Source of the DNA: Amoebophrya sp. A120
Taxonomy: Eukaryota; Protista; Dinoflagellata
Reading direction: 5' to 3'
Assembly (NCBI GenBank): GCA_905178155.1
Contig: CAJINV010000001.1
Span: 10,135,432 to 10,199,431, forward strand
Length of the DNA stretch: 64,000 bases
In this document: positions 26,066 through 63,475 of the stretch, piece by piece
Numbering within the stretch: position 1 is the first letter of the stretch
Layout of the letters: each line of letters starts with the position of its first letter
Notes under the pieces: generated by a model
Database searches by the model: none
Seen by the model: only the letters and a program-made list of their open reading frames with translations
Told to the model about the DNA's origin: nothing
Position numbers and translations under genes: made by a program

Positions 26066-26387
26066 TATTGTGAGGAAAAATCCCCCCTCCCCATACCAAA
26101 CCGGGACACTTCTGAAAATTTGTGATGCAGATTTGAGACCACAAATCGTCGCTGTATTGCATGAAGGCAAGTCTACAGGCTCCGCCACATTCTACAGGCG
26201 GTTTGTCATGCTGTTGCTCCTACAGCGTAGACGTCAGCCATGCTAAGTGCCTAGGCCAAAACTTGTCTACTCAGGCCTGATCTGGGCCTGCAGTCCTCGC
26301 CAACAAGACAAATCTGATCTGTGGCCTCAAATACAGCATCACAAATTTCGTTTTCGATATGGGGAGGGGGGATTTTTCCTTACGATA
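26066..26387. mobile_element. TIR introner / MITE-like non-canonical intron, family A copy 1
   Basis: TIR tattgtgaggaaaaatcccccctccccata / tatggggaggggggatttttccttacgata. Direct repeat tggcg at 26061-26065 and 26388-26392. Removing 327 nt fuses the two giant ORFs in frame (KSKSG|GAQAG). Second copy at 62928-63254. Confidence 0.93.
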
Positions 26388-26392
26388 TGGCG

Positions 26393-29300
26393 GAGCGCAA
26401 GCTGGACACTATTTCCAGAAGGCCGTCAAGGGGCTCGCGGGCGCCGGCGTTGGGGGACTCCTCGGGTTCGGGGTCCTCGCGATGGTTCTTGGAATCGCTG
26501 CCGCCCCCTTTGCGGTAGCCGGCGCAATGACTGCGGCCGCCGGCTCGGCGATTTTCGGCATCGCTGTCGCAGGCGGTGTCGCAGCCGGTGCGTACGGGGC
26601 GTACTACGGATCCACGCAGTTGCACAGCACCGACCCGACCGAGAAGATTCGCGAGTTTAACACGCTGCAGGCCATCGCGGAGCGCTGGGCCCTGTTCCTG
26701 GACCGCTCGCGGGGCATCTTGCAGGACGCTATCAGCGCCGCCGAATTTCGCGGGGAGCTGGTCAACGAGCGTGTCGCGCAGGACGAGGCGCTGAAGCGGT
26801 ACGAGCAATGGCTGCAGGAGCTGAAGTGGGACTTCGAGGGCAAACCAGAGCGGCCCTCCGAGCTCGAGAAGGCGAGCGAGCTGGAAAAGTTCCGCGGCAA
26901 GGCGCTGCTCGGTCACGTGCGCGTCCCGGCGGACAGTACACGGCAAAACAACGGCGCGCTGTTTCACTACTTGGCCGCGCAGAGTTCTTCCGCATTGTTC
27001 GACGAGGAACTTCTACAGCAGCTGAAGCCAATCAACGTGGAGGACACGCAGGCAGGCCTGGTGATCGCCGGCCAGAGCGTCGTGCCGGTGCAGGGCAATA
27101 ATCCGGACCATCCCGTGCACAAAAGACATGTGACAACCGAAATTACGTTGCCCGATAAGGTGGTGTACGGCCGACGGGCGGACTTTTCGGAATTTCTGGG
27201 CATGCGCGCGATCACGAACCCGTTCTACCACACGCAAATCGGCATGCTGTGTCTCGACGCGTACCGAAATGACCCTTCGTTTACCCTGACCAGGAATCTG
27301 TGGTCCTGGATGATCTGGGACTACTACAAGCTGCCCATGCGCCACTTCGAAATGGCGATTTGGCTGGACCCCGTGTTTGCGGGGCCGGCCTACATGGGGC
27401 AAGCGTGGTGGGCCGCACAGAAGGGGAAACACGACTCCAAATCGGACCTAAAGCTCACCCTCGAGCGCGCCAGTTTCGGCATTCAGAAAGAAGTGGAGAT
27501 GCGCGAATTCCTCATCCAGGTGACGCAAGGCGCGATCGACCGCAAGTGGGAGCAAACGAGTCCCCGCCCCGCGCAACAAGGAGAAACAACGCGCAACAAG
27601 ATGACAAACGATCCACTTGCTGCGCAGTTGACCACGGCCGAAGCTGCGCACGCGGGGCTGGAAAGTCTAAAGCGGAAGCAGGCGGTCACCAGAGCGTATC
27701 TCGACGCTATTGACAGCAACATCCGAGAGATCGAGGAGACGGAGCGCCTGCTCGACATAACGGCCCACCGTCCCGTGGAACCAGATAGCGCTGCTCACGT
27801 TCTCGCCGTCGTCGATCATTGGGAGGTGCCGCGCGTGCTGAAAGACTGGGGCGAGAAAGATAAAACGTGGAACGAACATGCGGGATTGCAGGAACTCGGA
27901 TCACTCGGCGACTCGCGCACAAAATCCGTCTTCGGGAAAACATTTGTCGAACGGGAAGACGAACCGATTCCCGGGGGCGCACAACCAGAGCAACAGGCAA
28001 GCAAGGGTGTTCTGGGCGGTATCGCCTCTTTCTTGGGTTTGTCTGGCTCAACTGCAGCCGGAACAGCATCAACAACCCAGGGTCACGCGGGGACGATGGT
28101 CAATGCACCGCAAAAACGCTATTTGCAGGAGAATGAATTTCAGAAACACACCGCTCTTCCCAGATCCGCGGCAGACATGCAGCTGAGCGGTCGCCCTAAC
28201 GTCGGTCGGAAGAAGTTGTTTGACCTGCGCGCACGCGGCTTCACCACCTACGAGGACGGCGGGATGACGTGGGACCAGGCAGAAACTGCGCTGACCCAGT
28301 GGCAGAACAACGCGGTATACACGCCCACCCAGGGAACGATTCCGACGGTCGTTGTGGAGCCGGAGTTTTCGGACTTCAATGACTTCAGTTCTCTGCTGCG
28401 TGGGGACCACGCCCGCGGTGCAGGGGACCGCAGCCAGGTCCAGGACCTGGGTTTTGAAGAGTTGCGGGCCAAGCTCGCGGAACGGCAGAAGCACGAGAAG
28501 GAATGGGCGGCGAAATGGTTCGGTGGTTGGCGGCGCAACATGCACAATGGCGAGGCGTGGAACAGCATGCATCGCGCCAAACCAAATGAGGTTGACCGGG
28601 CGGTGAAAAGCATCCACATCTCGCACTGGCGGGAAGTGTCCGATATGGCGGTGGCGTACAGTTTTGACCTGGAAGACGAGGACGACAATGACATGCAGGT
28701 TGACGCCGGCCGCGGTTCTGGTACACCCGGGCAGCAGCAGGGCGATGGTTCTTCCCTGCTTCGCACTGGCACGCGGCGCGTGCGGTTCGACGCGACGTTG
28801 GATTTCAGCTCATTTGAAGAGGCTTTTGCTGCGCTCAACAAAAACGCGGAAGAGTGGTCGAGCAAAGCGCACCGGTTCACCGTCGAATTCAACAAGGGGT
28901 CAGAAGGAAGCACTGGAAGCGTTGATGTGAACAGCGTGAACAGCTTTCACTACGACTTGACCTTTGAGCCGGCTGACACGGGCGACTCGGTCCAGGCACT
29001 GCAGCTGCTCGGCATGGCCACGGAGCCGCTTGCCTTCCCCCTTCCCGAGATTTACCGGAGCGAGAAAAACTTCCGGGGCGTGCAGGCGGTCACTACCGAG
29101 CAGGGCGGGTCTTCCGCGACCACTCCCGCTGCGGTGGAGCAGGAAGCACAGAAGCAGCGCGAGCACTTCTGGGAGGAACGGGCGAAGTACGTGAAGAAGC
29201 TGGTGCGCGAAGGTTTGCCGGGTATCGGAAAGATTGACGAGCGGAAGGACTTCGCTTTCGCACCGCCGGGGGGCAAAAACGAGGTGGTGATCCACAACAA

Positions 29301-32300
29301 ATGGAAGCCGCGCGCCGTGGACGTGGAGTTCTCCGTCGTCTCCGATGTAGAATTACAGGCTTTCTTCTTCGATCAAATTGCACAAAAGGTCCTGAAAAAA
29401 GCTGAGGATAGCCAACGCGCGGAGTGGGAAATGTTGTTGAAACAGTTTGCGACTGACGAGCCAACCGAAGAGGATGATGAAAGCGCCGGCGGAGGACACA
29501 CTGGTGAGAGTTTTCTGAGCACCGCAGGAGCAGGACCACGTCAGCCTGCGCTTGAGTCTCTCAGATCAGAGTTGCATCAGCGCTGGCTGGTGAGTAAGGG
29601 CATTTTGCCGTCCGCGCATCGTGTTTTTGCTCTTGAGACGGTAACGGACTTCATCAAAAGAGCGTGGAGTCAAACGGAAATGGAGCAGGCGTTCAACCAG
29701 GCCAGAGCTGCGGTAGAAGCGTCTTTGTTTCATCACGAGGTAGTTGCCGGTGCTAGTTCTTCTACGCATATCCCAACTGCCTGGCGCCCGCGCATTCGCT
29801 TTTTGGAGGATCCCGAGCGACTGATCGGAAAGGGTGTACAATCTGACCCGACGGACCGCTTCACCAAATTTCGTGTGTTGGACGGAGCCGAACGCAAGCG
29901 TAGTGTCGACCGCACCGAGTACGAAGACAGGTTGGGATCGGGCGAGGCAGCTGCCCGTCTGCCAGTGGAGTATGAAGAGCATCCACAGGTGCGGATCGAG
30001 GCGTTCCAGTCCTGGGACGGAAAAACCATGTACAAGCGGAAGGAAGTCACGCGGCACGAGAAAAAAACGGCCCTGAAGGCCGGGGAGACCATGGTAAAAC
30101 GTAGGCAGAGTCCTCTACAAACCGATCTGCAGTCCGCCGAGAGTCGTAGCCTCCAAAGTCTGACCGCCTTGCTTGGTGGTCCCAGAGCTTTTCAGGATTT
30201 TTACGCGATATTGCTTCTGGACGGAAGTAGAATTAGCAAAGGTAGAACCGAGAACAGCAGCTCCTCCCTTAACGCAGATGAAGCAACTTCGGGCAGCGGA
30301 TTCCAAGCTTTGCGCGAGCTTTGGTCAGCGGAAGTTGACCAGGACCTTGAGCCAGAACTGAGAGCGGTGGAGCTGAAATTTGTTGGTGACAACGCCGATC
30401 CGGCTGCTGATGTGGTGATGGCGCCGGCGGAGGACGAACTACTAAGCGGTCAACAGGAAGACGACGAAGCCGAAGAAGATGAAAACAAATTGGTCGCGTT
30501 GGACCAGCCGGGCGCGACAGTGCCGGTGTCTGATTTGCTTCGAGGCTCTGGCTACGAGTTTGAGCATGGTCTTTACGCAGACATTCAGGCGGAGAAAGAA
30601 GCGCTAGTTGTGGCGGTCCCGCATCAACAGGGCGGCGCGGTCGTTCCAGACGCACAAACCGCGGCACACCCCCAGGAACAAACCAGCGGACTTTCGGAGG
30701 AAGACTTGCGAAAGAAAGAGAAGCAAGAACGCGCACAGCGCAAGCGCGAAGATCTCGCGCTGGCGCGTGCCAAACAGCGGTTCGTGCGACAGTCATTAGA
30801 GGGCCTGCTGTCCGTGCGGAAGGTGAAGAAGAAACTGATCGGACCGGAAGTTGTCGAAGAGGTCGAGGAGCGCTACAACCCCTACGTTCTCTCCTCTTTT
30901 ACGAATTCGAAAGCGAGTGGGGATCACTACCGCATCCGGTTCCAAGGTGTGGACGCCTCCGTAGCGCAGACGCTGATCGCGTTTTTGGGGAAGTCGCTGC
31001 TTGGCGGACCGGAAGACGCCCGGATGCATTTGTACAGCGTTCTCGAGGCTGCGGGCTTGAAGCCGCAGAAGGACGGCAGTTTGCAGGATCCAGAGTTCCT
31101 GCGACCCCTCCGCCGGGATTTGGCCTTGCTGCACGAAAAGCAGGAGCGCGCGCTGCGCCACAGCTGGACGGAGAAGATTCAGTTGCTGGAGCAGGAGCTG
31201 CGCGACGAGGTGCGCAACTCCGCAACGGCGGGGGGCCGTTTCACCGCGCACCACAAAAACCTGTTGCGGCGCCAGGCGGAAATGCAGGAGCACGACTTAG
31301 CGGAGCTCAACGCGGTGCAGGAGCGCGAGCGCGGTGATTTGGACTTGTTGAAGAAGTCCCTACTCGACAAGGTGGTGTCCTACGTGGAGGAGGAGCAGAG
31401 TCAGTCGGTTGACCAGCGTCCCGCGCCGGCCTACATGGACAAGCAGCGCATCTCGATGACCCTGCGGGGCTGCGAACCCGCGCTGGTTGGCTTGCTGCGG
31501 TGGAAGTCCTCAGAAACCACGAAGGAGCGCGAAGTCCTGTTGGGCGACGATGGCCTGTTCGGCGACGACCGCGCACTCGCTCTTGCCTCGGAAAATGGCA
31601 TGGACGCAGAAGACGCAGCTGCGTTGCAAGCCGCACGCGAAGAGGACCACGGCCTGGAAGACGAAGACGGATCTTCATCTCGCTCGGAAGACGCGATGCC
31701 GGGAGACCAGATTATCGCGCCAAGTCGAACGGCGAAGCACCTCAACGCGGACCGCGACCCAACCGCCTTCACGAAGGAGCTCAGCACCGACTTCGCCGAT
31801 CAGAACGACGCGCTGGTGTTTGCCGACCTGCACTTCACAGGCATGCAGTGGGCCGCTGTGGATGGTCCGCAAAGAGACCTGGTGTTGCGCAAGCTACTAC
31901 TGTTCTCGTTAGACTCAGTTTATGAAGAGACCAGTCCCACGGCGGTCGGCGAAGCTAGCCCCCGGTTCTCCGTGGGAAAGCCGGCGAAACCAGATGGGAT
32001 GATAAACATGCTAGCCAGCATGTTTGCCGGGCTGGGTGGAAAAAGTGCTGGCGAAGAAGCTGGCCCTGGCAGTTCGTCTGTTGACCAACCGTCTGTAGTT
32101 CAGAGATCGCGAAGCGAACAAGCGAGACAGAGCTTTCTCGCTTTCCAAGGGGAGGGCGACGCGCAATTCCCCGAGCAGGACGTCGTACTCTCTCCAGCCT
32201 TGCAAGCCGAGGTGATCAAGCTGCTGCCTGCCGAGGCTCAGGAGGCCGCGAGCAGTGATGCCGACGCGGTCGGGCGTGTTTTGCTTCACAATCTTCGGGA

Positions 32301-35300
32301 GCAAGAGAAGCAGCGAAGTTTGGTCATCGAGCGCCCGCAGGCGGTTGATTTAGAGGACAAAGCCCTTTTGCGTGCCTGGCTCCGGAAAAAATTTGCAACT
32401 GATGGAGAGGAAATGAAAATCGAAATGACTGGGAGGTCGAGTCTCCTCAACGTGCCACAGAACGTGGACCCCGCTGTGGTTGCGCAAAAACAACAGGCAG
32501 ACGTGCAGATGTCAGCAACCGGTTCTGAGGGTGATGCCCCTGCTGCGTGGGAAGAGGAGAACAAAAATGGTCTCTGGACGGCACTATGCATGGACGATTT
32601 TCTCTATGCTCCACCGGATCGCTTGTATGTGTACTTCTGGGAACTGAGTTTTACCAAGAAAGCGGAGGAGCGGTCAGGCGAACAAGCCACTGCTGCCAAA
32701 CACGAGTCGAATGATCAGCAGCGCGTTTTGTTCTTCGAGACCGAGGCCGGATTGCGTCGAGCGCTAGAAGAATTCCAAGGAGGTTCTTCCTCGTCCCCGC
32801 AGAAAGCGAGGTCACGAATCCACGCAAGCCGCCTTGTGAAGGTTCTGGAGGACGAAAATCTGACCAGTGTCGCGCAGCTAGACATCGGGATGAAAGAGGC
32901 CTTGCTGACGGACGCGATGTTTCAGCGGCACCGCGAGCGCCAAACCGTGGAGTACGTGGCCATGCTGGAGCAGCAGCACTTTCCGCGAGAGGCCGCGCTC
33001 GAAGCCAAAAAGAGAGCGGCCACCCACCCGGGGATGGACGGATCGAACGTTGCCGTGTTTTTCGACGAAGCGCAAAAAGCAGAAGACGAGGGCTACGGTG
33101 AGGCAAAAGTGAAAAAGATAGAAGCGGCGGCCGCGAAGCACGGGCAAATGGTGGCCGGTGACGAGCGACAGGCCCGGCTCAGTGCCGTCATTTTCGTTTT
33201 GCAGGAGAAGGCCCGGCTGCTCCTGCAGCAAGTGGAGGACAATTTGCAGACCGTCTCCAACGAGGTTGACGCAGCATTGGTCGTCATGAAGAATGAAAGT
33301 GGCCGATCTCTTCGCGGGCTCGTGGGACAAGAACAAGTGCCGGAGCAAGAAGTACATGCTGACTTCGTGCCACCGGCGGAAGCAGGAAGCGCGGGCGGGA
33401 AGAACAGTGGCAATACACCAGCGGAAAGAGGAGCGTCGAGTCTGCAAACTCGTATGGTTCGGTTACAGTCTCGGCTTCGGGCGTCCGCAAGGGAGGCGAC
33501 GGTGCAATACCGCAAGCACCTGCGGACGCAAATTTCCCTAGGGGTTGGTGGGAACAGCCCCGCATTTTCGCTTGCCAAGGTAGAGGCGCACCCGATCCTG
33601 ACCGGAGAGGAGCTCGGCCCCTCGACTGGAACGGCCGAAACCATTGCCGGCTGGTGGGACACGAGCGTCAGACCGTACGCGGATCTGAACCACCTGGAGG
33701 CCGTCCGTGACGTTGTCGTGGACAATTTCCCCTGGACGGACAGGGAGCTAGCGCAGCAGACTGGTGAGCCCTATCCGAACTGCATGAGCGACTTGCGGCA
33801 GCTGCGAGAGAAGTTGTTGCTGCACACCGCTCTGGATGCCAAGGCGCAAGAGGCTGTACACGCGGTGCAGAAGCGGATTCGCGACGAGAAGGAAGCGCAA
33901 GAGCAGCAGCGCATTGAAGCGGAGGAAGCGAAACTACAGGCTGCAAAGGACGCAGCGCAGAACGGAGCTAGTGCAAGCTCGGGACAACAAGATGAACCTG
34001 GTCAGGGGAAGGAAGACGACATCGTCATGGTTGATGCGGCTCCTGATGTGGATGAGTTTGATGTTGAGTCAGAGGATGAGGAGCAACGCGAAACGGACGA
34101 GCTCTACGGTTACCGCGGAGGTCTCCCTGGTGACGATAAAGGCTCCAATGGGAGCAAACCAAAAGAAGACCCAGCGCCGTTCTCCAAAGGCGGTAAGCAA
34201 GGCGGGAAGTCGAAGTTGTCCGGTGCAGCAGGACATGTTTCCTCTGCTGGCCGCTCAACGCGTGCTCCATCTTCCGCTGCGAGTACCTATCTTGCCGACG
34301 ACGACGATGATGACCTCGAGGTATCTTCCGACAACTTAACCGCTGCTTCGGAGGAGGAAAATGAGTTGAGGACCTCACCAACATCGGGACGACCCCAAGC
34401 ACGCGGTTCTCCTGCTAGTGCAGCAAGAGGTCCGGCAGCGGTCGGCACTGCGGGACACCAGCCTGTTATCGTCTTGTCGCTAGCGGGGTTGACGGAGGAG
34501 GCAATCCGAACGGCGGCACTCAAAGGTGAGGCGCATGCGCAGCGGCTGCGCGAGATGCAGCTGCAACTGGCTCGTCGGGGAAGTGGCCTCGGGGCGGGTC
34601 CCAACAAGGAATACGAGGAAGATTCCGAGGCGGGTGAGAACGAAAGCAGCACGGACGGTGGTGAAGAAGAAGAAGTTGACATCAATCAAGTCTGGGAGGA
34701 GGAAGTGGGAAAGTTTGGCGTTCCGAAAGCGTTATACGAGCGAATGAACGCGGAAGAACGGAAAGCGTCCGTTGAGGCGCACACCAACGCGCAACTCGTG
34801 CGAGAAATTTTTGGCAAAGTCTCGCAGCAGTTGGCGACCGCGAAGAGCAGCTCGGTTGACCAAAACAATTACAAATTGCCGAAAAAGACCTTCTTCAGGA
34901 GCCAAATGACAAGCGCGGCCCAAACCGCGGTGGCGAAGACCCAAAAACTAGTCCGGTACCTCCGCTGGGTGGCGCCGGGGGATAAACCAACCTTCACGCT
35001 GCTCTTCCGGGATTTGGAACAACAGGTTCTGCGGGACGTGATTTACCGCTTTTCGTATGGCCGCGGGGCCGTTCACGGCGCGCTGCACGAGGAGAAAGTG
35101 GATCTCAAAGAGGTGTCCTCGCTGAAGTCGCAGTGGCTCGCGAGCGACAACCTCTACGGCGAGGACAGCTCGCGCGCGCGCGGCATGGAGTCGCAGCTGT
35201 TGGAGTCTGGCGTTGTCTCCTCGACCGGCGACGCCAACGCGCGCGCCGCCCTGCAAAAGCACTTAGCGTTGGCCACCAGCAACCAGCCGCTGACTTCGGA

Positions 35301-38300
35301 GGAGTACTTGGCGCAACAGCGGGAGGTCCAGCTTGCCAAGTACGAATCCACCCTCGCGGAGGCGGACCGCCGCGGGGTGTCCTTCATCTTGAAGATGGGC
35401 GAAAAGGCGGTGTTCCCACCGATCAACTTCCTCATCGTTTCCGCCATTTTTGTCGCGCAGTTTGCGGTCGCGGTGTACTGTCCGCCCCTGGCGGTCAAGC
35501 TCGGAATGGAAATGGCGGGAGACGCCGCGGTGCTGTACGAGATGTGGTCCAGCCACACGTTCCAGGGCTGGGGCCGGTACAACGTGCAGAAGGCCATCTC
35601 CGTCGTGTCGATGGGGTTTTCCACCGTGAAAACCGACGCGGACGGCAACTACATGTTTTCGAAGGCGTACGACGAGCAGGGCAAATTCAAGGGCCTGACG
35701 TGGGAGGCCACGGACGAGTTCCAGGCCTGGGCCGGCTGGGCGTCCACGGCCACCGAGGAGAGCGCGGAGCGGGCGGCCGTGGCCGGAAGTACGAAGGCGT
35801 CGACGAAAGCGGGCGCGACCAAGGCCTCGAGCGCCGCCGGCACGGAGGCGGCGGAGGGGGTGGCTACCCAAGCGACTAGGGAGGCGGCGGAGGAGGTCGT
35901 TGAAGAGGCCGCGGAAGACGCGGTGGAGCAGGCAGCCGTGAGAGTTACTCAAGAGAGCGCGGAAGAAGTGGCGGCCGGCGCGACCAGCACCAGTTCCACT
36001 GCCGGGGCGGCGGCCGGGGAACAAGTCGGAGAGGCCGGAGCCGCGGCCTCGTCCGCAGGCGCAACTGCAGGAACCGGTCTGGAGAGCATGACGCTGCAGC
36101 GCACGGCCATTACGACCGGACACGTTGCGGAAAAAGTGTTTGAGAAGGTCGTGGAGAACAAGTTGCAGGAGATCTGGAAACCGATTGAAAACGACATTTT
36201 GACCAAAGTGCAGCAAATGTTTGACACGATCCTGCAGGGAATCTTCGGCCGCGACTGGCTCTACAACGGGGGGACCAGCACGATGGTTGGTTCGTCGCAC
36301 GACCTGAGCAAGGGCCAGAATTTGAACACTTTGTTTGTGCAGCTGCTGGCGGTGAAGAACAACGACATCGCGGACGTGAAAAATGAGATTGAGGGCATCA
36401 TCAACAACAGCATCAACACCGAGACGGACCTGACGCTGTTCATGTCGAAGGGGTTGAAAGACTCGTTCTCGCAGTACTTCAAACCCACGCTGGATGCCGG
36501 CATCGAGCATGGCTCGGGGGCGGTCCTCGGCAAACGCGCCTCGGAGAAACGGTTGGCGGCTCAAGACCAAAAGGAGGAAGACGCTGACAGGGAGGAACAG
36601 GAAGACAAGGACTATGAGGAGGAAATGAAAGCGCAACAGCAATATCTAAACGAGAAGGAGAGAGGCGGGCTCGACATCAATAGCCAAGCGGAAAAAAAGA
36701 TTCAGGAAGAGGAGAAGGAGATCGCGGCTCTCGAAAAACGCCACGGCGGCGCGCAAGAGGAAAGTAAGGGCACCAAAAACTGGAGCAAACAGTGGAAGAA
36801 GTACTACAAAACGGGCGGCCAGGTCCTGGCGGGACTCCAGTTGGTGACCTCGTGGCGGCGCATTGTGCAGCAGACCCTGATTGGTTTTCAGGAGCGGTTG
36901 GCCACGCAGGTCGACCTCGCGAAACTGACGGAGCGAACGGCGGGCAGGCTCGGAAAACGCAAGATGCCCCGGCGGGAGCTGGAAAAGTTGTGGAGTAGCC
37001 ACGAGGGTAGGTACCTGGAGCGGCAGTGGAGGCGCCCCTTCAGCGCGGCGGAAGTGCGGCGCCTTAGCAACAACCCGGCGCTGCGCAAGATGACGGAGAC
37101 GGTCCAGAAATTCCGCAACCTCCGGGACAAGAGGCGCGAGCAGCAGAGTAAAACGATGATCCAAGAGGCGCTTGCCGTGGCCGCCCCGAGCGTTTCCCTC
37201 GGCTGGGGCTCCAGCGAAGAAGACAAGAAAAAGGCGCACACGGTTGAGCAGCGGCGCCAGGAGCTGACGGAGCGGTACCAGGAGGAAATCCGCGCGGTCT
37301 ACGAGCGCCGCGACCGTCCGCAAACGCAACTGCAGGACACTCTGTTGGACGTGCTGGGCCGCAAGATCAAGGCCTACCGGGACTTGCCGATCGTGCGCCA
37401 GAACTTTCTGCTCGGGCTGCGCAACTTCTTCTTCCGGCAAACCCGAGAGTGGGTGAAGCAGCACTTTGTCCCCGACGTCGTGAATCAGCTGATGGGGCAA
37501 ATGGCGGAGCTGGCCGCGAAGGGCGCGGGGACGGCGGTTATCAAGGTGCTGCGGATCAAGGAGTGGGGCCTTTTCAAGGACCACTTCGACGCGGAGGAGA
37601 GAAAAGTGCGCGACGCGCTCGAGAAAGTACTCGCAGCGGAGAACAACCAGAAGGACGCCGAAGAGTTCCTCGCGATTCTCCGGGCCGTCGAAGAACAAAT
37701 CAAGAACGGGGAGCTTGGCGCAGACGGGCTGCTGCCGACTAAGGTCAAGTTGCCCGGGCCCCCGGACAGAGAAGTCGAAGTGCCCGCGTCAGTGAGAAAC
37801 TTGGTAGACACGCCGACAGACGCGGACATGCTGAAAGACCAACTTTCCGACGCGCTGCAGTCGGAAGCGGGCCAGGAGAGCGTGATCCAGAGCACGATTG
37901 AAATGGGCCAGCGTTACAAAGATGCGGGCGTGAAGGGGGACATGGTCAAGTGGAAAATCGGGGACAGAGAGGTGGAGATCTTTTTGTGCGCGGAGATGGT
38001 GGCGTTCGTCACGTTTCGCCACGAGAAAAAGGTGAAACTGCAGGCGGGCGACGATGTCGACCCGAGGGAGAAGCACAAGGCCACCGACCAGCAAGTGAAC
38101 GCCGCGGTGCAAGACCCCGGGAAGGCTTTGAGCTTTCTAGAGCGGAACGAAGACAAGGATCTGAAAGCGCTGGACGATGCCACCGAGGAGGATCGCAAGG
38201 CCGCCGAGGAGAAGCGCAAGCTGACCCCGGAGGAGCGAAAGCAGAAGCAGAAAGAGGCGGCGGAGCGCCGGGAAGCGAACGAGAAACAGAAGAAGCAGGT

Positions 38301-50829: not shown

Positions 50830-50992
50830 CATGCAGCCGAAGCCTCTCAGTTTGTTATTTTTGTCTGGATGTCATAGTCATTCTCAGCAACGGTTGCTGG
50901 CTTTTTCGCTCGAATTGTTCGTAATAGTATAACAACTTGTTACATCAGAAGATACAGCTTTCGCTTCGCGTTCGCCAGACGAGGCACTAGAT

Positions 50993-51038
<46 letters not shown>
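50993..51038. repeat. (TAAG)11 microsatellite
   Basis: Eleven perfect taag units followed by ta. Confidence 0.97.
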
Positions 51039-51351
51039 CATACATCACACCTTCCGCCGTCCTGCTCTTGTTTTCCACAGTAGGCATTGGGAACTTGAGC
51101 TAATTGTTCTGTGACGGTGTCTTTTGAGTTGAGTTGAGGACGATGTGTTCTGCTCCTGTTTGCATGTCATCCAACATCCCGCTTTGTGATTTTACCTAAA
51201 TGGTAATATGGAAAGCGATTTGATGTTGGTCCTTGGGCAAAAGGCAAAGCGTTTGAGACTACCAGATTTGTTTCTGGCATAAGTTCCGGCCCGTATGAAC
51301 CTCGCGGAAACCCTTCACAATGGCACGGCATCTTCCAGAGCAGTCATACAG

Positions 51352-53741: not shown

Positions 53742-55229
53742 GAAATCTTTCTCGCGAGGAGAAGTAGAAAGCGCAATGTACTTAATAGTCCAGGCCGAAG
53801 ACAAGCTGAAATAAATATTTTCCTGTCACAGACGAGAGAGTCATCACACGTATGGACGATGTTGAGCACTATCAAGTCACAGATGAGAGTGACGCGTTCG
53901 CAGTTGCTCAAGCATGCCATGCATTTTTTCTCAATTTTACATAAACAAAGTTTGATTTTTGTTTTTTCGATTCTGTTTCATAAGTTAGGCACCGTAATCC
54001 AACCTCAATAAGAAATGTTATGTAACTTCTGTGATTACAGCATAAAGATGAACCTAACCAGAAAAACAAACATAATGGAAATGATGTTGATTTGTCACTG
54101 TAGTGAACCGAAATGAGCATATGCTGTAGCACATACAGAAATAAAAAGAGGACACTCACACAAGTTTCATTGAAGTATGCGACGGATAGCGTTTTCTGCC
54201 ATACATCATCATGATATACAGTGAGCGGAGCCACGCACGAAAGTGAGATGCAGCAAAACAAGATAAGTAAATAGATTCATTGATAGATAAAATAGTTTTG
54301 TAAGGACGACCAGCTCGTCAGGTACCATGCAAGTGATATCAAACACTACAAAGACTGACTTCTAGGATCATGCATTTTAGTAGTTTTGCTTTTGTTTTTC
54401 CACGCTGCATGCATTTTAAGTGAAGTTCAAGTTGAACAATCACGCTTCCACAGATAGCTATTCTTTTTCGATTTTGTTAATAGTTGCAATCACATTCAGA
54501 TTCGGTAACGGTATGAATTTGAGCTTTCCAAGAAAGTCACGCAGCGACCACTTCCTCTCGAGCTAGCAGATGCCAGCAACGATTGATAATTGTAATGACA
54601 AATGCACTTACGAGGAAGAGGATTGTTGACGCCATGGGAACCACCGGTGTCACCTGATGAAGATTACTTAAGTACGGTGCTACAATAGCAATTTGTTTGC
54701 GTATTTATGCTTGAGCAGCAGAGCATGTTGCGGTTTACGGTTTCGCTGTGGAAAAGAAACAAGAGGATAAATCAACCATTTGACTCTCAGGCCCAACAAC
54801 ATCGGGGTTCTGCCTCTGCTTGCGCGACCAGCCAGAGTATGCGTGGCTGTGACTTTTCTTTTTGCCCAGGGCACCCTGTTCGCTTCTGCGTGTTACTGTT
54901 TCTTACAAGCAGGCAACCAACCGCAGCTAATTTTGCTACTGGCTATACAGTATGATATGAAGAACACTGACTATTCAATACATACGCTATAGCTTCTGTT
55001 TGAGTTGTTTGTCCAGTTCGTCCTTCGGAGAGTCGTTTGCGAGTCTCAGTTTTCGAGCGTCGTACTAGTGCCTCTAAGTAGAAGCACTGGCTCACCAATA
55101 GGAGTTTGGAGCAATCTCCTAGCACTTGTTTTTATCGAAAAAAATATCAAGGTTTGTCCCTGCAGAAACAAAGCAGCCCGTTCGACGGGATGTAGGATTT
55201 TGAAAAGCCGCGTCAGCCGCTCCGGAAAA

Positions 55230-57118
55230 ATGGGCGTTCCGACGTGGATTATCGGTGTCGCGCTGCAGAATGCGTCCTCCTTCACGTGCACTTTGGGACT
55301 GGTCGTCCAGAAGTGGGCGACGCAGCAGAAAGTATTTCGGTCGTCGGTGTGGTCCTTCGGTTTCGTGCTTTTCATGGGCGGCCAGCTGTTGATGCCCGCC
55401 GCACTCACCATGGCGCCGCAGTCGGTGCTGTCCTGTCTCACGCCGACCACGTTACTGTTCAATTCGGTGCTAACGCCCTGCATCTTGCGCGAAAAATTCA
55501 CCGCCTACCACACGGCGTCGATTATCTGTATCTTCCTGGGTTGCTTCATCACAGTACAGTTCGGTATGCACCCGGACGAGGTCGAGGGTGGAAATGATCG
55601 TCAAAGCGGGATTTCTTCTAGAACCCCCTCGTCAACATCGACATCAACTGCCACGTCAGAAGTAAACGGTCACTATTCTCCGGCCACGGATCCAACGCCC
55701 TTCCTCACCCTTCGCACGGTGCTGCACCTGGGAACGAGGCCGATGTTTCTCGCACTGGTCGTGTTTTCTGCGCTGGTGGCACTGAGCGTCGCCAAGCCGG
55801 TGGTTGAGTGGCGCTGGAGCGGCGCGCCGACGAGTGCGCTAAAGAAGCGTGTCACACCCTTCCAGTTGATCCTGTTGTCAACCATTTTCGGGGCGGTCTC
55901 GGTGACCAACACAAAAGTTGTTTCCACACTCTTTGCGGACAACTACCTACTGGACGAGGGCAAAATGAACCCGCAAGACGCCGCGTCTGCCAGGGGAGAT
56001 GCGGTCGTGGAGCAGCGCCGTCACGACCCACGCAGTGCAGTGGATGCGGCTGGTCGTGGTGTTGACGCGGCGGCCAAGACCGCGGGCGGCGCTGCGTCGG
56101 CGATCGCCTCGTCCTCGTCAAATCCGGTTTTTTGGCTGTTCACCACCGAAACTGGACTGGCCTGCTTGATCCTGATTCTCTTCGGCATCGCGGGAGTGGC
56201 CGTCGTGTCGATTTCTCTTCTCAACTTATCCATGGTGCTGTTCAGTTCGCTGACAACGGTACTACGTGCTGGCCTCGTTGTTCCTGTGTCCTACTTGGGC
56301 TACTGGGTTTTTTAGTTTTAATAGCACCTTCATCATACTTGTTTTCTAGTAGGTGCTATACTTTTTAAAAACTTCGTTCCTGACGGCCGCCCTACTAGAC
56401 GATCAGTGCCTGCATGTGCTTGTTGTCAATCAGCTCACCCTATTGATTCACACCTCTCGAGCTTCATCAAACAAAGAAACAAGCACAGGTCACGTTGAAC
56501 TGCGCATTGGGGCTGGTGATGCAGTTGATCTACGGTGCCGTCTTTTTCGAGGAGTACAAGCTGTACTCTTTTTCTGCCTTTTCCGCCACCGTCCTGGGCG
56601 TTTGTTGCTCTTTTCTGGGGCTCGGATTTTTGTACTTGCACGGCAAGAATGAGGATAGCGCGGACCACGTGGACTTGCTCTCTTCCTCGCCCGGGATGAA
56701 AAATTTGGTGTCCGGAGGGTCCGCACTGCCGTCGCCAAGGAGTGGCGGCAGAGCGGACCTGCCCGGCTGCGGCGACGCTGCCATTTTACAGGGCCGCGCG
56801 TACCAGGTTCTCGAGGATGATAGCAGCACGACAACCGGAATTCTAGAGACTAACACGACCTCCATCTCTGCTGGCTTCAGCAGCGGGGGAGCGTCAAGCA
56901 GTACTAGTGGCTCCTCGTCCTCAACCATGGACCGGGGAGGCACGGGCTACGTAATCGACCAAGTAGCGGGGGCGGTTCCGTCGCCGAACCGCGTGGAGTT
57001 TTATCACAGCACACAAAGAATGCGAATAGCCTCACCGACAAGCAAAACTGTGAACGTGCCACGCCCAGGGATTTCACGGTCGAGTGCCGGATCACGGTCG
57101 AGTGCCGGAAACGAGTAG
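55230..57118 (+). CDS. NIPA-family (DMT superfamily) Mg2+ transporter; exons 55230-56258 and 56489-57118
   Basis: IIGVAL..SSF..LGLVVQK, WSFGFVLFMGGQLL..AALTMAPQSVLSCL..LLFNSVL..ILREKF and IYGAVFFEEY match NIPA patterns. GT-AG intron 56259-56488 joins SLTT|VTLNCAL in frame. Confidence 0.85.
57074..57109 (+). repeat. Perfect 18-bp tandem duplication in the NIPA C-terminal tail
   Basis: tcacggtcgagtgccgga x2 (SRSSAG SRSSAG). Confidence 0.9.
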
Positions 57119-58211
57119 CCAGAGTGAGAAGTCACTGACACAATAAGAATGTCCGCTTTGCGAAGCAAAAGTCCTCATCTACAAAAAAAATAGTTTCGCT
57201 GTATTTCCATGTGTTCCTCTTCCTGGGCCTACAGCTACACCGACTACCGGTACCGTTCTTCAAGTCTCGGCTTTTCGTTTTGCTTGCCCCCTGTCGTGTG
57301 ACATCGTGCTATTTGAGAACATACGTCCACGTGATTCATAATTTCTTGCGATTCGGTTTCAACGGTATGTCGTACTCGGTAGTGAGACGTCCTTTATCGG
57401 TTTGAAGAACTCGTTCCCGATGTCTTTTGAAATCGTACGAACGTGGTCGTCCTCGCGAAGCATGCTAAGTAGATGCAGTTGTCAACCGGTTAGCTTCGTG
57501 CCTGCTAACCTGATACACTTGTCGGTCCGTCCGATTGCCGCTCCAGGAAAAAGAGCAAATAAAGATAGGAACAAGAAACGAATTCTCTTTTAGCCAATTT
57601 CTCTCTTCGTTCCTCGTAATTTCAGTATTTCAAAAATACCACCAGGAACCCATGCCCAGTTTCTCACTAACTACCCAGATTATAATATCAACCCTGTATA
57701 CAGTATGCGCCTTTTTCTACTACCCAGCTACCACTTCTTGTAGACATTTCTATTTCATCAACGTCCACTTTCTTGTTTCTTAGTCTTAGACTGAAAGAAT
57801 TCTTGTTTAGTTACTACACGAGATGGCGAAACGGTGACGGAAGATGCATTACGCATGGCGTCATGATCAGTTTCAGTTTCAAACTCATCCTCATGTATGT
57901 TTCTTTAGGTCCACCCTAGCTTGAATACGGAAAAAATCGTTATTTTTCTCGTGCATGCAAACGGACAGTCATTGGAATTGTAATTGTTTGAAAGCAGAAC
58001 AACGAGTTGGTGATGCTTTTACTTTTTGTTCCATCAGCGCTCCTCACAACAAGCCTGCTACAGTGTCCTGAGGCACGACCGGCGAATTGTCTCCTTTGCT
58101 CACAGTTTTACTAGAGGCTGGACGCCACTACAAGTACGTCGTGATCGTGTAGAAGGCCTTCATCACGAGGAAGAAGGCTGTGCCTGTGCCCCGTGTCCTC
58201 CGCGAAGCAGG

Positions 58212-61200
58212 ATGGATTCTCCCGGCAGACCGGAGCCGATGATGTTCGACGCGGGTGTCGGCCGAGACACTAGGCGAGCGGACGGCCTCGAGCTTGGCAC
58301 GGTCCCCCGAAGGGTCGATGATGTGTGGGTGCTAGATGAGGCAGAGCACATGCTGGTCGATACCACGAACTACGTATTGGCGATGAGCAGCGACACGCTC
58401 GCCTCCCTGTTTGACATGAGCCCCTTCCGCACCGCGCGGCTGTACTCGATCCTGCACGCAGGCGGCCTGCGCAAAAACACCAGTCTAAGTCCCTGGGAGT
58501 TCTCGACCCTGCTGAAACGGGTGGGCCTCGTCACCGAGCAACGGCTGGAGGGCGTGCAGATGCACTGTCCGGACTCGCGGGACCCAGACCGCTGGCTGTT
58601 CTACCACTGGTGCCACTTGCGGAGAGAACAGAACATGCTGCGGATTCCGAATTACCCCCGGCCCACGCTGCCAGAGACGGTCTACCTGGCGCGGGACGTG
58701 CTGAAGCCAATCAATCCTAACTTCGAAGGAGATGAAGCTGCCGACCGGGGCCTTCCGGGCCTCTCGGAGGGCACGGACCTCGAGCGCGCGCGGGATTTCT
58801 ATTGGCAGATCAGCAGCCGCACCGGTCTGGAGCGCAGCCAGCTGGTACGGAGCGTATACGCTATTTGGACGGCCTTTGCCGAGCCATTCCTGGATCGGCG
58901 GGAGCAACAGATGGTAATGTTGCCGCAGTACCGGCTCGCGGACGTCTTGCGGTACGCGTCCCTCCGTGCGTTGCTGATGACCGACGACGCGGCAATCGAC
59001 GAGGAAGCATCTGCCGGGCTCGCTCCGGGCGAAGACAATGGGGTTTCCAGCGGATTTCTGGTCATCGACTACACTGCAGACATGGTGTACGAGCGGCGCA
59101 TCGTTGCGGTGCCGCCGCGAGGAAGCCGCGCCACGAAGGTGCGGCGCACAAACTCGGTCGGCCACTTAGAGACGCAGGTGCAGCACTACGAGATCCGGGA
59201 TTTTTTCCTCTCCCCCCAGCACATGCCATCGGACTCGCCGATGAAGATGCGATGGATCGCGTTCACCATGGGACGCGGCAAACAGGGCAAGAGCACGGTT
59301 TTGCGCCTCGCCGTAAAGTACCGGATCCATCCCCTAGCCGTCGAAGACGCCTTGTCCCTGAGCGAGCAGGCGCCGTCGGGCCGCATAACTCGGTACGATA
59401 ATCGTCTTTCCGACCTGATCCGCCTGACAGCGACCAAAAGCCTCGACGAGAGGGCTGCCGGGCGCAGCCCCGTGTCTGGCGGGGGGTCGGTGGGATTCTG
59501 GGCTCCGGACGACCAAAGAAATTTGGATAGTTTTTCGATGGCGATGCCGACGAGAGCCAGTGCAAAGAGTGCGAACGCGTACTCTCTGGCACGCCAGGTG
59601 AAGAAGAGTGGGCGGCTCGTTGAGGGTGCGCAGCTCCAGAATAAGTCGATCCTTTCGACATCGACGAGCGCGCTGGACGCAGAGCAGGGGGACGAAGAGG
59701 ACGAGGACGCGGCGGCGCGCGCCAAGGCGAAACGCCACGAGGACCAATCGGTTGGGGAGCACTGGTTCGTGTCGGTGCCGCTGTTTCGCCTGAGCCAGGA
59801 CTCCCGACAGCGGATGCACTCGGCCTTGGCCACCTTGGAACGGCTACACGGCAACTCCAAAAACCACAAGAGTGCCATCGACCAGCACCGCGGCGCCATG
59901 GCCCACACCGCGGCGAAGGAAAAGGCGGGGCGGGGCAGCTTCAAGGCTGCCGCAGAGGCCGGCAGGCAGCGCTTAGAGGCGGCCAAGTCTGTATTCGGGG
60001 GGAGCAAGGCCAGAAAGCGGCACACCCGGCACATCGACACCGGTATACAACCGAACCTGGGAATTGAGGTCGAGTCCTCTAAGCTTGGGCTTATCGTGGC
60101 CGTACGGCCAATATGAGAGTGTACAACGCCGCTTCCATCTCATCTGTCATGTATGTAACATACCAAGTCAGCCGTTTGCCCCCTATTGCATTGGCACTGC
60201 TTGTTGCATGACAGAATTGATTCGCAACAGGAAAAATGGAATCTTGTACTTATGAGTGTGTCGTGCAAAAGGAGCTGCATCTTCACCACCACTACTTGGG
60301 TTGCTGTTGATGCCGTCCAAATGAGGGGGAGGGGGAGTTGTGCACTCGCATACCGAACGGGCGACCTTGTCATATCTATCGCGACCCCCTGGCACCAGAC
60401 GCGGGTCAATATGACCGACGAAGCAGTCAAAAAAGCCACAGAGGAAGCCAAGGAGGCCGCAGCAGAAGAGGCAAGAGAACTGGAGCAGGAAGCCCAGAAA
60501 AATGCCTCCGAAGGTACAAAGCGCTGTAAACCTAACTACAAAAGCGATCAAGATCATCTGATTTTACGAACCTGCCATGAAAATGAGAATCTGTCGACGG
60601 AGAGCGATGCCGTAGGAACATCCTCCCGCGTATTCTCGAGCAATTGATCCTATGTGTGTTGTACTCATTCGATGGGCCGGAAAATACTCATAACAGAGCG
60701 AAGCCCAAGCCTTTCAGTACCTTCCTCGTGTGTCTAAGTATTGCTTCTGCACGCCCGACGTCCGACTTACTAGCTCTGCTTGCGAGTAGTGCGAGATTTC
60801 TCCAGCAGCAGTGTGGCTGTTACTCGGCTCTACCAGCAGCATGTTTCATTGCTATTGCCCTCCTGCTGTCATCTGAGCATATCCGGCTCAGGATCAGTTT
60901 CAGATACCACTTATTTATTTTTCACTGAAATCTTTACTTCAGGTTCAGCCAGCGCCAAGGACACGGCCAAAACGGAGAGCGGTTCAGGAAGCTCAATACG
61001 ACATGTGAAAAAGAAGAGAGGAGCAGAAAGTAAGATGTCCCAGGCAGAGCTGGCGGAGATGTTGCTGGATCTGGCCGGGGATCTTTCAGAGGATGACTTC
61101 ACGTCTAGCGACGAGGAAAATGACGCAACACGGGGAAATGAGTCAGAGGTACAGGTCGCACTCACGGGGGCCAAGAAAACACGCGCAGCTCAAAAGAACA

Positions 61201-63475
61201 CGCGGGTGGCCGGACTCCAGACCACGGAAGAGGAGGACGATGAAAGAGAAAGGCGCAGCACTCTCGTCACGGGCTCCGGGGGCCCGGGCACCAGCGTCAC
61301 CGCGGCGAGCAGGGCGGCCGACCTCGTCGACGAAGAAGACGCGGAGGACATCGAGAGAGCGAAAGCGGCTATGGCCGCCGCCTTTGCCACCTCGGGCCCC
61401 TGTGCGGAAACGACTGACAGAATTCTGTACGGGAGCCCCGTAGCCAATGAACGGAACGAAGCGCGCCGTAAAATGGCGGCGGCCGACCGGAAGGCAAGCG
61501 CGGAAGCGCAGCTACTGGAAGACAACGAAAGCGATGCCGAAAGACGGACCACAGAGCGAAAAGCTGGCGGGGCGAGCGCGAGCCACAAACCGAAAATCAT
61601 TAACGCGCTCAAGAGAGTGAAAAAAGCTCTAATCAAAGACTACAGCGTCATTCGCCATGGTGACGCGATCTGGTTACTCTATTGCATCCTAGACAGCTGC
61701 TACGAAACCGAGAAGTCAAAACTCCCTCTACCAGCATGCCCTAACTAGTAGTAAACCAGTGACCAGCTCCTTCACAAGCTGCTGTATCATCTGGACCATA
61801 AAGAAACAAAGAAATATGATCCTCACAGGAGAGAAACGTACAACAACCTACTGACTAGCGTGGTCTTGGTATGACATAGCCTCCACGAGGTTGGTTGCTC
61901 GGTTGGTTCAACTTGGGACTTTATGACTTTTGGTTTTTATAGCTGCCTCACCGAGTGTCTCCCGATCGCCCACGCGTTCGAACTGCAGCTGGCCACGACA
62001 TCGTCGCGACTGCACCAGCACGAACACGCCCTCCCGGAACAGGAAGTGAAGAACCTGTATTTGATAGAAAGGCATCTGGACTGGTATCCTCTGCAAAAAT
62101 CACCTGCGTGCCCCACCAGTTTGTGTCCGCGAGTCATAAGAGAGAACCGCGCATCTGTATCAAACAACCGAAAAACAAAAGAAAGAAAAACGTTACAGCA
62201 CGGGTTTGGATTTGACATGAAGATTTTCTTCCTCAAAAACTATCCAGTTCATCTTTGTTTCGCAATGCAACAAGACATATATCCATAACCATATCGTGCA
62301 TGAGTATGACTATGACATATGGGTATGATGTTGATAGATGGGGATCGTTGTGTGGGCCGCGTGGAAGTTTTTGAAGGTGATACCTCGCTGGAGATGGAGC
62401 TGAAGCCATTCGAGCGGGTGCTGAAGTCCCTGGTTGAGAACTTTGAGGACCGAATACCCGCCGAGGTGCGCGGCTACCTAGAGGACGTGCAGGACAGTCT
62501 GCTGGAGATGATGGACAAGTTGTCGTGCTACCAGCGGTATCAAATGCAAATATGTCCGGGTCTGAGAAAATGTTGTGAACTTGTGATGCACATTTCAGAT
62601 GACACAAAAAGTAGTTCTCTTGCTTGGGCGGGAAAAGTTGCTCTTCATCTTGTTGTCATCAGAGGAACGCTGCATTTGTAGTCAACATCCAGGCGGATTA
62701 GGTATTAAGTATTGAGATTGAATAGAAACAGTCTCACCACCTGTGATGCTAGGGGCTTGCATGGCAGATCTACTTCCTGGCCACGCAGACACTGCATCAT
62801 AGACCTCAGCAAACTTCCAGAGGACCCAGACATATGATTTGCGTAGCATAAGCGAGAGTGCGAGTCGCTGAAGGCGGAGCGGCAGAGCTACGTGGACAGC
62901 AGTTTGAACCGGTTGCTCACAGTGTTGTATTGAGAGGAAAAATCCCCCCTCCCCATATCGAAAAGGTATGTTTCCGAAAAAGAAAATTTGTCTTGCTGAT
63001 TTGAGACCCCAAATCAAGTCTGTCTTGCAAGAAGACAACGCCGCAGGCCCTGCCGCACTATGCAGGCGGTTTGCCATGCTGTTGGGCCTACAGCATAGAC
63101 GTTTCTCATGCTAAGCGCCTAGGCCAAAAGCTCTCTACTCAGGCTCGGCAGGAGCCTGCAGCCCTCGCCAGCAAGACAGATCTGATTTGAGTACGCAAAT
63201 CCAGCATCAGAAACTTCGTTTTGATATGGGGAGGGGGGATTTTTCCTTTTGATATGTTGACCATCATCACCGCTGCGGCGCTGCCCGCGACCATGATCTC
63301 CGGGTATGCAGGCATGAACTTCGAGACCGCGGACGAGGAGAACCCCGGCCAGGCCGACCCGACCGATCCGTGGCTCACGTGGGAGTACGGTTGGGAGTCC
63401 TACTTCATCATCACCGGCTCGTTCACCCTACTATTCCTCTACTACATCATTGTGGCAGCGAGAGGACTGCTATAG
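58212..63475 (+). CDS. corA: CorA/Mrs2/Alr1-family Mg2+ transporter, 7 exons (approx. 58212-60111, 60358-60513, 60943-61700, 61947-62084, 62388-62537, 62856-62927, 63260-63475)
   Basis: YRIHPLAVEDAL, WLLYCILDSC|LTECLPI, SLNRLLTVL|TIITAAALPATMISGYAGMNF (GMN signature), then WEYGWESYF and a second TM helix. All six joins are in frame. Confidence 0.9.
60112..60352. mobile_element. Decayed TIR introner in CorA gene
   Basis: tatgagagtgtacaac...ctcatctg versus caaatgag...gttgtgcactcgcata. Flanks gccaa/ccgaa (3 of 5). Removing 246 nt gives AVRP-T-GDLVISI. Confidence 0.75.
60514..60942 (+). other. Canonical GT-AG intron in CorA gene, phase 1
   Basis: gaag|gtacaa ... tttacttcag|gttca, in frame. Confidence 0.75.
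61701..61941. mobile_element. TIR introner in CorA gene
   Basis: tacgaaaccgagaagtcaaaactccc versus gggactttatgacttttggtttttata. Perfect gctgc repeat at 61696-61700 and 61942-61946. Removing 246 nt keeps the frame. Confidence 0.82.
62085..62382. mobile_element. Decayed TIR introner in CorA gene
   Basis: tatcctctgcaaaaatcacctgcgtgccccac versus gtgggccgcgtggaagtttttgaaggtgata. Flanks actgg/cctcg (3 of 5). Removing 303 nt gives HLDW|LEMELKPF. Confidence 0.75.
62538..62850. mobile_element. TIR introner in CorA gene, family B-type ends
   Basis: tatcaaatgcaaatatgtccgggtc versus gacccagacatatgatttgcgtagcata. Flanks agcgg/agcga (4 of 5). Removing 318 nt gives YQR|ECESLK. Confidence 0.82.
62928..63254. 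mobile_element. TIR introner, family A copy 2
   Basis: Same TIR core (gaggaaaaatcccccctccccata) and alignable interior as 26066-26387. tgttg repeat at 62923-62927 and 63255-63259. Removing 332 nt restores CorA TM1 (LLTVL|TIITAA). Confidence 0.93.

Follow-up and report, generated by a model that had tools for sequence, protein, structure and literature searches.

Inverted-repeat introners in a stretch of the Amoebophrya sp. A120 genome and a possible role of their hairpins in placing the cut

How is an insert taken out of a messenger RNA with the reading frame intact when its borders are mostly not GT..AG? The question is raised by a 64,000-nucleotide (nt) stretch of Amoebophrya sp. A120 (assembly GCA_905178155.1, contig CAJINV010000001.1, positions 10,135,432 to 10,199,431; this whole stretch is called the window), in which ten elements with inverted terminal repeats, E1 to E10, interrupt the genes. 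An earlier note on this DNA had described nine of them, and a base-by-base check placed all nine where it had put them; E10 is added here. The phenomenon itself is already known, as the introner elements of Amoebophrya A120 have been published (Farhat 2021, PMC7789003; Gozashti 2025, PMC12130899). We hold with good confidence that the ten elements are non-autonomous inverted-repeat introners of the A120 type, similar to miniature inverted-repeat transposable elements (MITEs) and inserted in coding exons. In transcript contigs eight of the ten are missing, along with exactly five flanking bases, and the frame is restored.

Elements absent from transcript contigs

The ten elements share a simple layout. 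On folding, 10/10 elements form a terminal stem with TAT/ATA at its base. Among the nine described before, eight begin TAT and E5 begins TAC, while eight end ATA and E4 ends ATG; element length plus five gives 327, 3451, 392, 281, 246, 246, 303, 318, and 332 nt, the same values as in the earlier note. The five bases flanking each side are identical in five elements (E1, E2, E3, E5, and E9), agree at 4/5 positions in one (E8), at 3/5 in three (E4, E6, and E7), and at 2/5 in one (E10). A 7-bp duplication incorporating the TA was also considered and is ruled out by the flanks of E1.

Six public contig assemblies, X1 to X6, were compared with the window. Of the words sampled from 53500-63400, elements among them, X1 and X2 contain 0.98, and both behave as DNA. 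X3 to X6 contain 0.43-0.59 of the sampled words; they have no RNA label on record and were taken as transcript assemblies because conventional GT..AG introns (46902-47026, ~60514-60942, and 56259-56488) are also absent from them. X4 comes from the same sample as X3, and X6 from another sample. A first contig mapping covered 43401-63400 and a second 42900-62899, with E9 outside the second.

The X3 contigs omit exactly 392, 281, 246, 246, 303, 318, and 332 nt at E3, E4, E6, E5, E7, E8, and E9, the lengths that the earlier note had derived by restoring the frame, and exactly 503 nt at E10, so that 8/10 elements are skipped as element plus 5 nt. All elements are read on the + strand. E3 (49120-49506, 387 nt, flanks GATTG/GATTG) is crossed by an RNA joint from 49114 to 49507 (392 nt, 5-nt ambiguity). 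E4 (49554-49829, 276 nt, flanks AGACG/CGAGG), whose 3' end has decayed to ATG, is crossed from 49552 to 49834 (281 nt, 1-nt ambiguity). E10 (50784-51281, 498 nt, flanks CGAAC/AGTTC) has the TAT...ATA ends and the hairpin and is crossed from 50782 to 51286 (503 nt, 1-nt ambiguity). It also holds a (GTAA)n microsatellite at 50985-51050, which was skipped as a repeat in contig mapping. The joint at E6 (60112-60352, 241 nt, flanks GCCAA/CCGAA) runs from 60109 to 60356 (246 nt, 2-nt ambiguity; X3 and X4), and that at E5 (61701-61941, 241 nt, start TAC, flanks GCTGC/GCTGC) from 61694 to 61941 (246 nt, 6-nt ambiguity; X3, X4, and X6). E7 (62085-62382, 298 nt, flanks ACTGG/CCTCG) is skipped from 62083 to 62387 (303 nt, 1-nt ambiguity; X3 and X4), E8 (62538-62850, 313 nt, flanks AGCGG/AGCGA) from 62532 to 62851 (318 nt, 4-nt ambiguity; X3, X4, and X6, thus two samples), and E9 (62928-63254, 327 nt, flanks TGTTG/TGTTG) from 62922 to 63255 (332 nt, 5-nt ambiguity). 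In the second mapping the E6, E5, E7, and E8 joints were again seen in X4, and those of E5 and E8 in X6, among the joints listed.

The two remaining elements are E1 (26066-26387, 322 nt, flanks TGGCG/TGGCG, 18/20 terminal bases complementary) and E2 (42989-46434, 3446 nt, flanks GAGGT/GAGGT, 20/20 terminal bases complementary). For E1 the predicted intron is 26065-26391 (327 nt, GT..GC), the removal of which would bring the open reading frames (ORFs) 1-26070 and 26281-42324 together in a single frame. The intron predicted for E2 is 42988-46438 (3451 nt, TT..GG), and the frame would still be open once it is removed. No E2 joint was found among the joints listed for 42900-62899; RNA contigs do not cover the E2 interior, a fact that counts neither for nor against removal.

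In DNA, the X1 contigs run unbroken across E3, E4, E5, E7, and E8, and no RNA-type joint occurs in X1 among the joints listed. The elements are repeated: 14 X1 contigs begin matching exactly at 42989 and another 14 at 49120. The raw RNA-seq runs X9 to X11, which are labeled with the species name of the DNA sample, gave no reads on 43401-63400 at 95% likeness and may represent another strain or a host-dominated sample.

Position of the cut relative to the hairpin

The elements with mismatched repeats locate the cut. Identical flanks are uninformative in this respect, while diverged flanks show which copy the mRNA keeps. Counted from the TAT, the allowed 5' offset is -1 or 0 for E4, for E7, and for E10, -2 to 0 for E6, and -5 to -1 for E8. 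The sole offset common to these five junctions is -1, with the 3' cut then 4 nt past the ATA (-1/+4); such agreement has p = 0.015 if offsets are uniformly random. A cut exactly at the TAT (offset 0) is excluded by E8 alone, where the mRNA retains the A of the right copy rather than the G of the left, in a junction found in two samples. The mismatched copies at 60112, 62085, and 62538 had been singled out in the earlier note for this purpose, and comparison with the transcript contigs did narrow the allowed offsets to -1. Its suggestion that the hairpin fixes the 3' cut a few bases past the stem is thus borne out to the extent that the five mismatched-repeat junctions share -1/+4 only, and the cases are few.

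Under the -1/+4 rule the introns with RNA joints are 49119-49510 for E3 (392 nt, GT..TT), 49553-49833 for E4 (281 nt), 50783-51285 for E10 (503 nt, CT..TT), 60111-60356 for E6 (246 nt, AT..GA), 61700-61945 for E5 (246 nt, CT..TG), 62084-62386 for E7 (303 nt, GT..TC), 62537-62854 for E8 (318 nt, GT..CG), and 62927-63258 for E9 (332 nt, GT..TT). Across all ten, the introns start with GT in six cases, CT in two, and TT and AT in one each; they end with TT in three and with GC, GG, AG, GA, TG, TC, and CG in one each, and no common acceptor signal is seen. The 3' end is indeed usually not AG, as had been claimed, with E4 the one AG end in the ten. In total 9/10 elements lack GT..AG, as do seven of the eight with RNA joints. 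U12-type introns, which have the 5' site RTATCCTT and a 3' AG or AC, were considered and rejected: E7 begins GTATCCTC and E2 TTATCCTG, the other starts differ, the AG end is found in E4 only, and no element has an AC end.

The E4 intron is a canonical GT..AG intron that retains its hairpin ends. The left flank has AGAC at the positions where the right has CGAG, and the AG lies exactly at the cut site of the other elements. This suggests that a non-canonical element has drifted, at the same two positions, into a canonical GT..AG intron. The reading of E4 as a matured element fits the report that 15% of canonical A120 introns carry the same repeat layout (Farhat 2021, PMC7789003).

A wider sample of loci was used to evaluate the duplication and the donor. 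The 22-nt end of E2 was compared with a metagenome-contig collection, giving 72 loci with contig names all of one assembly. The E2 family in these loci is a 279-280-nt element, and the flanks of its unique full copies match at 5/5 positions in 48/55, at 4/5 in four, and at 0-2 in three, the last being probably mispaired ends. The 600-nt surroundings of the E2-type loci hold further families, including the E3/E8, E1/E9, and E6 types. Among the inverted-repeat pairs of other families, 33/114 have 5/5 flanks and 6/114 have 4/5; the remaining pairs, with 0-3 flank matches, are chance pairs or ends of neighboring elements. This yields 85 unique perfect-flank elements of ~5-7 families, in a scan that demanded TA[TC] ends and with 49/85 from the query family. 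In this set 170/170 arms begin TAT and 162/170 fit TAY-N7-AAA. The 5-bp repeat proposed in the earlier note therefore recurs well beyond the window.

The frequent G-T donor of the earlier note fared differently. All six positions that it named before TAT are G (6/9, or 6/10 including E10), which at a G composition of 0.32 gives p = 0.064 and is not clearly above composition. For the public elements, calling the strand from the open frame alone left 14 usable elements and was replaced by a codon model for which the giant ORF of the window served as training set and which called 47/48 test chunks correctly. It assigned a coding strand to 34/85 elements; 51 with short, closed, or ambiguous flanks were excluded. 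G occupies the sense -1 position in 12/34 overall and in 10/31 outside the window, compared with 10/34 at the antisense counterpart and a G composition of 0.32. The enrichment of G before TAT is thus unsupported outside the window.

We propose the following sequence of events. All families are likely moved by a single transposase class, integrase-like (Ginger-like), that duplicates 5 bp of the target. Once transcribed, the terminal repeats likely pair in the pre-mRNA, and the hairpin would juxtapose the exon ends. The stem likely fixes where the cut falls, 1 nt before the TAT and 4 nt past the ATA and irrespective of the bases found there, and the cutting is probably done by a spliceosome that is lax in recognizing sites. 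E4 would then be an element turned ordinary GT..AG intron at exactly those two positions. A bolder reading, to which we give slightly less than even odds, is that splice sites are set by RNA shape and not by sequence, that a new insert with a 5-bp duplication can be removed scarlessly at once, and that later drift toward GT..AG may follow as in E4.

The same junctions could be read without any fixed ruler, with a relaxed spliceosome taking any workable site in the duplicated 5 nt, GT if present, and an offset that varies from element to element. The GT at -1 in 6/10 window elements and the splice sites described as variable relative to the hairpin by Farhat 2021 (PMC7789003) would suit this explanation, and the informative junctions number only five. 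However, 5/5 of these fit one offset, which random offsets would give at the p value above, E6 (A at -1) and E10 (C at -1) are still cut 0-2 nt from TAT, and G is unenriched in the wider sample; we regard a floating offset as unlikely. Alternatively, the spliceosome may not be involved. An endonuclease and a ligase could read the base of the hairpin and free the intron in linear or circular form, a route suggested for the nonconventional introns of euglenids. The 9/10 elements that are not GT..AG are compatible with such a route, as is the reported absence of U1 small nuclear RNA (snRNA) (Farhat 2021, PMC7789003), and euglenid introns show the same paired-end logic with staggered unpaired bases (PMC11282704). 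Yet E4 is GT..AG at the identical two positions, and the same repeat layout is reported in 15% of canonical A120 introns (PMC7789003), both of which fit one machinery for the two kinds of intron. Spliceosome-free removal is therefore a doubtful but serious alternative.

Removal might also occur in DNA, if elements were precisely cut from the genome in some cells and the transcripts came from the emptied genes; transcript contigs alone cannot separate RNA from DNA removal. The X1 DNA contigs nevertheless keep the elements, with no joined forms among the joints listed, although contigs can hide rare variants, and X1 and X2 both contain the element words of 53500-63400 at the level given above. 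Moreover, RNA contigs join element ends to other flanks, which shows that the elements are transcribed and weakens this explanation further. We consider excision from DNA highly improbable.

Several points weigh against the hairpin-guided removal of transposed elements that we favor. The choice of -1 over 0 hangs on the single junction E8, and the transcripts were not from the sample that gave the genome. The evidence from RNA consists entirely of assembled contigs rather than reads. The removal of E1 and E2 is predicted from the restored reading frame alone. The GT donor does not define the site, since G at -1 is not enriched (12/34). Farhat 2021 (PMC7789003) states that the intron border 'remains unknown', and its Fig. 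3 legend calls the sites 'variable' with respect to the hairpin. Neither the window nor the public loci yielded a transposase, and the same paper reports none in A120. Taken together, the hairpin as a ruler has modest support from five junctions, and the single transposase class is plausible but unproven.

The per-family dinucleotides in sd07 of Gozashti 2025 (gt ~26-30%, at ~14-27%, ag ~24-30%) were considered as a test of the cut and rejected because identical repeats let an aligner place the border freely, maybe favoring half-canonical sites. No published fixed cut offset was found in the consulted passages of Farhat 2021 and the other introner papers, within which the Farhat 2021 supplement figures S19-S25 are represented by their legends and may show more on border positions. 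The -1/+4 detail may be new, with few cases behind it. How genes can be filled with introns by a burst of transposons that bring no splice signals of their own has already been published for this lineage; the window adds a cheap test of the cut, in which diverged 5-bp repeats reveal the copy retained in mRNA. If -1/+4 were true genome-wide, the borders published as 'variable, unknown' would be reduced to a single structural rule, genes would be easier to predict in such genomes, and studies of the splicing machinery would gain a defined substrate in a lineage from which U1 snRNA is reported to be missing.

Element families, the nested insert of E2, and the host genes

The earlier note had described the terminal repeats as several unrelated sequences. 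They are not truly unrelated, as a TAT + 7 nt + AAA motif is common to them and is found in 13/20 arms in the window. E1 and E9 form one family, with 76-81% identity along their whole length, and E3 and E8 form another, with ends in common. A degenerate octamer, TGTRATGC, occurs eight times in the window (26121, 26343 on the - strand, 43021, 43052, 43133, 49401, 62582, and 62742), always inside E1, E2, E3, or E8, and the elements make up 10% of the window. The sites are subterminal, near the element ends, and the octamer could be a common transposase-binding site or a splicing signal. The four traits common to the families (5-bp duplication, TAT/ATA ends, TAT-N7-AAA, and TGTRATGC) fit one transposase class.

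Systematic scans of the window agree with the inventory. With a chance control of TA...TA pairs with at least 14/20 complementary terminal bases, the ungapped scan gave 56 TA...TA pairs, and 5/5 flanks were found only in E1, E2, E3, E5, and E9. A gapped scan of the window gave 19 pairs compared with 10 in the shuffled control and no additional convincing element.

E2 is the only long element. It consists of a ~281-nt element and a nested insert at 43199-46349 (3151 nt), which is bounded by a 16-bp direct repeat (43183-43198 and 46350-46365). Short copies of the E2 family (~280 nt) align to both E2 ends, with the break at the nested insert. At the start of the insert, positions 43198-43218 match 21/21 positions of a 21-nt sequence that we take to be the dinoflagellate spliced-leader motif, with no match in shuffles. 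Because it starts with this motif, the insert looks like a retro-copied trans-spliced mRNA lodged in a MITE, which would itself act as an intron. No poly(A) was found at its 3' end. A Pfam search of the 15 longest E2 ORFs gave no matches. The E2 ends are highly repeated and the interior is not, as judged from a summed X1 contig depth of 43,000-54,000 at the ends vs ~43-112 in the interior. E2 is not autonomous; its interior is a nested insertion with no transposase gene.

Transcript contigs also carry E2-type ends (42989-43066 and 46370-46434) joined to other flanks. Their summed depth is ~34-143 per 667-nt bin, and up to 495 at single bases, where the local gene has 1-5. RNA therefore contains many E2-family copies, whether unspliced or excised as pieces.

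The claim that one transposase class mobilizes several families can be retained as plausible, as the families share the 5-bp duplication, the TAT/ATA ends, and TAT-N7-AAA; the enzyme itself is missing from it, with no transposase ORF found. The supplementary data sd07 of Gozashti 2025 (PMC12130899) list an A120 family, fam38, with integrase-like ORFs and the label 'Ginger; 5-bp TSD, TA/TA Termini', where TSD is target-site duplication. The 5-bp duplication and the TA/TA termini of such elements are present here, and an integrase-type (DDE) ORF is absent among the E2 ORFs.

The genes that carry the elements lie in GC-rich DNA (~0.48-0.62 across the window). A giant open frame spans 1-26070 and then 26281-42324 in the same frame, interrupted by E1 only. 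It is already open at the window start and has >14,000 codons; its only Pfam matches are SecA DEAD-like, preprotein-binding, and P-loop pieces (codons ~7480-8400) and DUF6861 near the end. Smaller genes follow downstream on the same strand, and removal of all introns gives ORFs of 2138 and 1195 amino acids, the latter of which terminates in a CorA-like GMN segment. The gene bearing E2-E4 and E10 contains, within its coding sequence at 48162-48629, a 78-nt unit repeated five times in tandem that codes for a repeated RRNAVYDPDTSHDGEWHPDVTND-like peptide. Three conventional introns are present on the + strand. The first, at 46902-47026, is GT..AG with an RNA joint from 46901 to 47027 (125 nt skipped). 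The second, at 56259-56488 in a third gene, is spanned by an X6 contig that joins 56257 to 56488 and is GT..AG after a 1-nt shift. The third, at 60514-60942 in the CorA-like gene, has a joint from 60511 to 60941 (429 nt skipped; X3 and X4) and is GT..AG with the cut 2 places to the right. An Rfam search of the whole window gave no matches.

Comparison with known introners and nonconventional introns

The closest counterpart of these elements is the set of A120 introners described by Farhat 2021 (PMC7789003). That paper reports >60% non-canonical introns in A120 with a mean of ~240 nt, and 8-20-nt inverted repeats that begin TAT + 7 nt + AAA, form hairpins, and fall into thousands of families. 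Direct repeats of 3-5 nt lie at the borders, 4 nt being the commonest length and the legend of Fig. S19 giving one of 5 bp, and neither U1 snRNA nor minor-spliceosome snRNAs were found. The inverted-repeat hairpin, direct repeats within the 3-5-nt range, TAT-N7-AAA, and removal without GT-AG are all present in the window. Many families with no transposase inside are likewise common to both, and A120 genes are described there as one-strand with a GC of ~58%. The spliced-leader motif is present in the window, and its GC, one-strand gene order, and intron size fit A120. In contrast to that account, the duplication is 5 bp in the 85 elements here, and five junctions point to -1/+4.

The A120 families of Gozashti 2025 (PMC12130899) are similar in being terminal-inverted-repeat DNA introners, several with an automatic or manual TSD of 5 and mostly with non-canonical splice sites. 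Family fam38, compared by its description only, differs in its integrase-like ORFs, as nothing similar lies in the window.

Outside this lineage, the nonconventional introns of euglenids (PMC11282704) share the non-canonical borders, paired ends, TSD-like junction repeats, and a suspected MITE origin, and in both systems the 3' end has more unpaired bases than the 5' end. The pairing itself differs, with CAG/CTG at +4..+6 and -8..-6 in euglenids and TAT/ATA at +2..+4 and -7..-5 here. Release as full-length circular RNA and late removal, following that of the conventional introns, are features of the euglenid introns. The MITE-derived introns of Fritillaria borealis, as summarized in PMC11282704, also have inverted repeats, target duplications, and removal without GT-AG. 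They prefer AG-AC and AG-AT, whereas the ten introns of the window show nine end pairs under -1/+4. Finally, the introners of Micromonas pusilla and Aureococcus anophagefferens (via PMC7789003) resemble the window elements as non-autonomous inverted-repeat transposons with target duplications, the insertion of which creates introns. Those introners use canonical motifs, unlike the elements described here, where GT..AG is found in 1/10 only.

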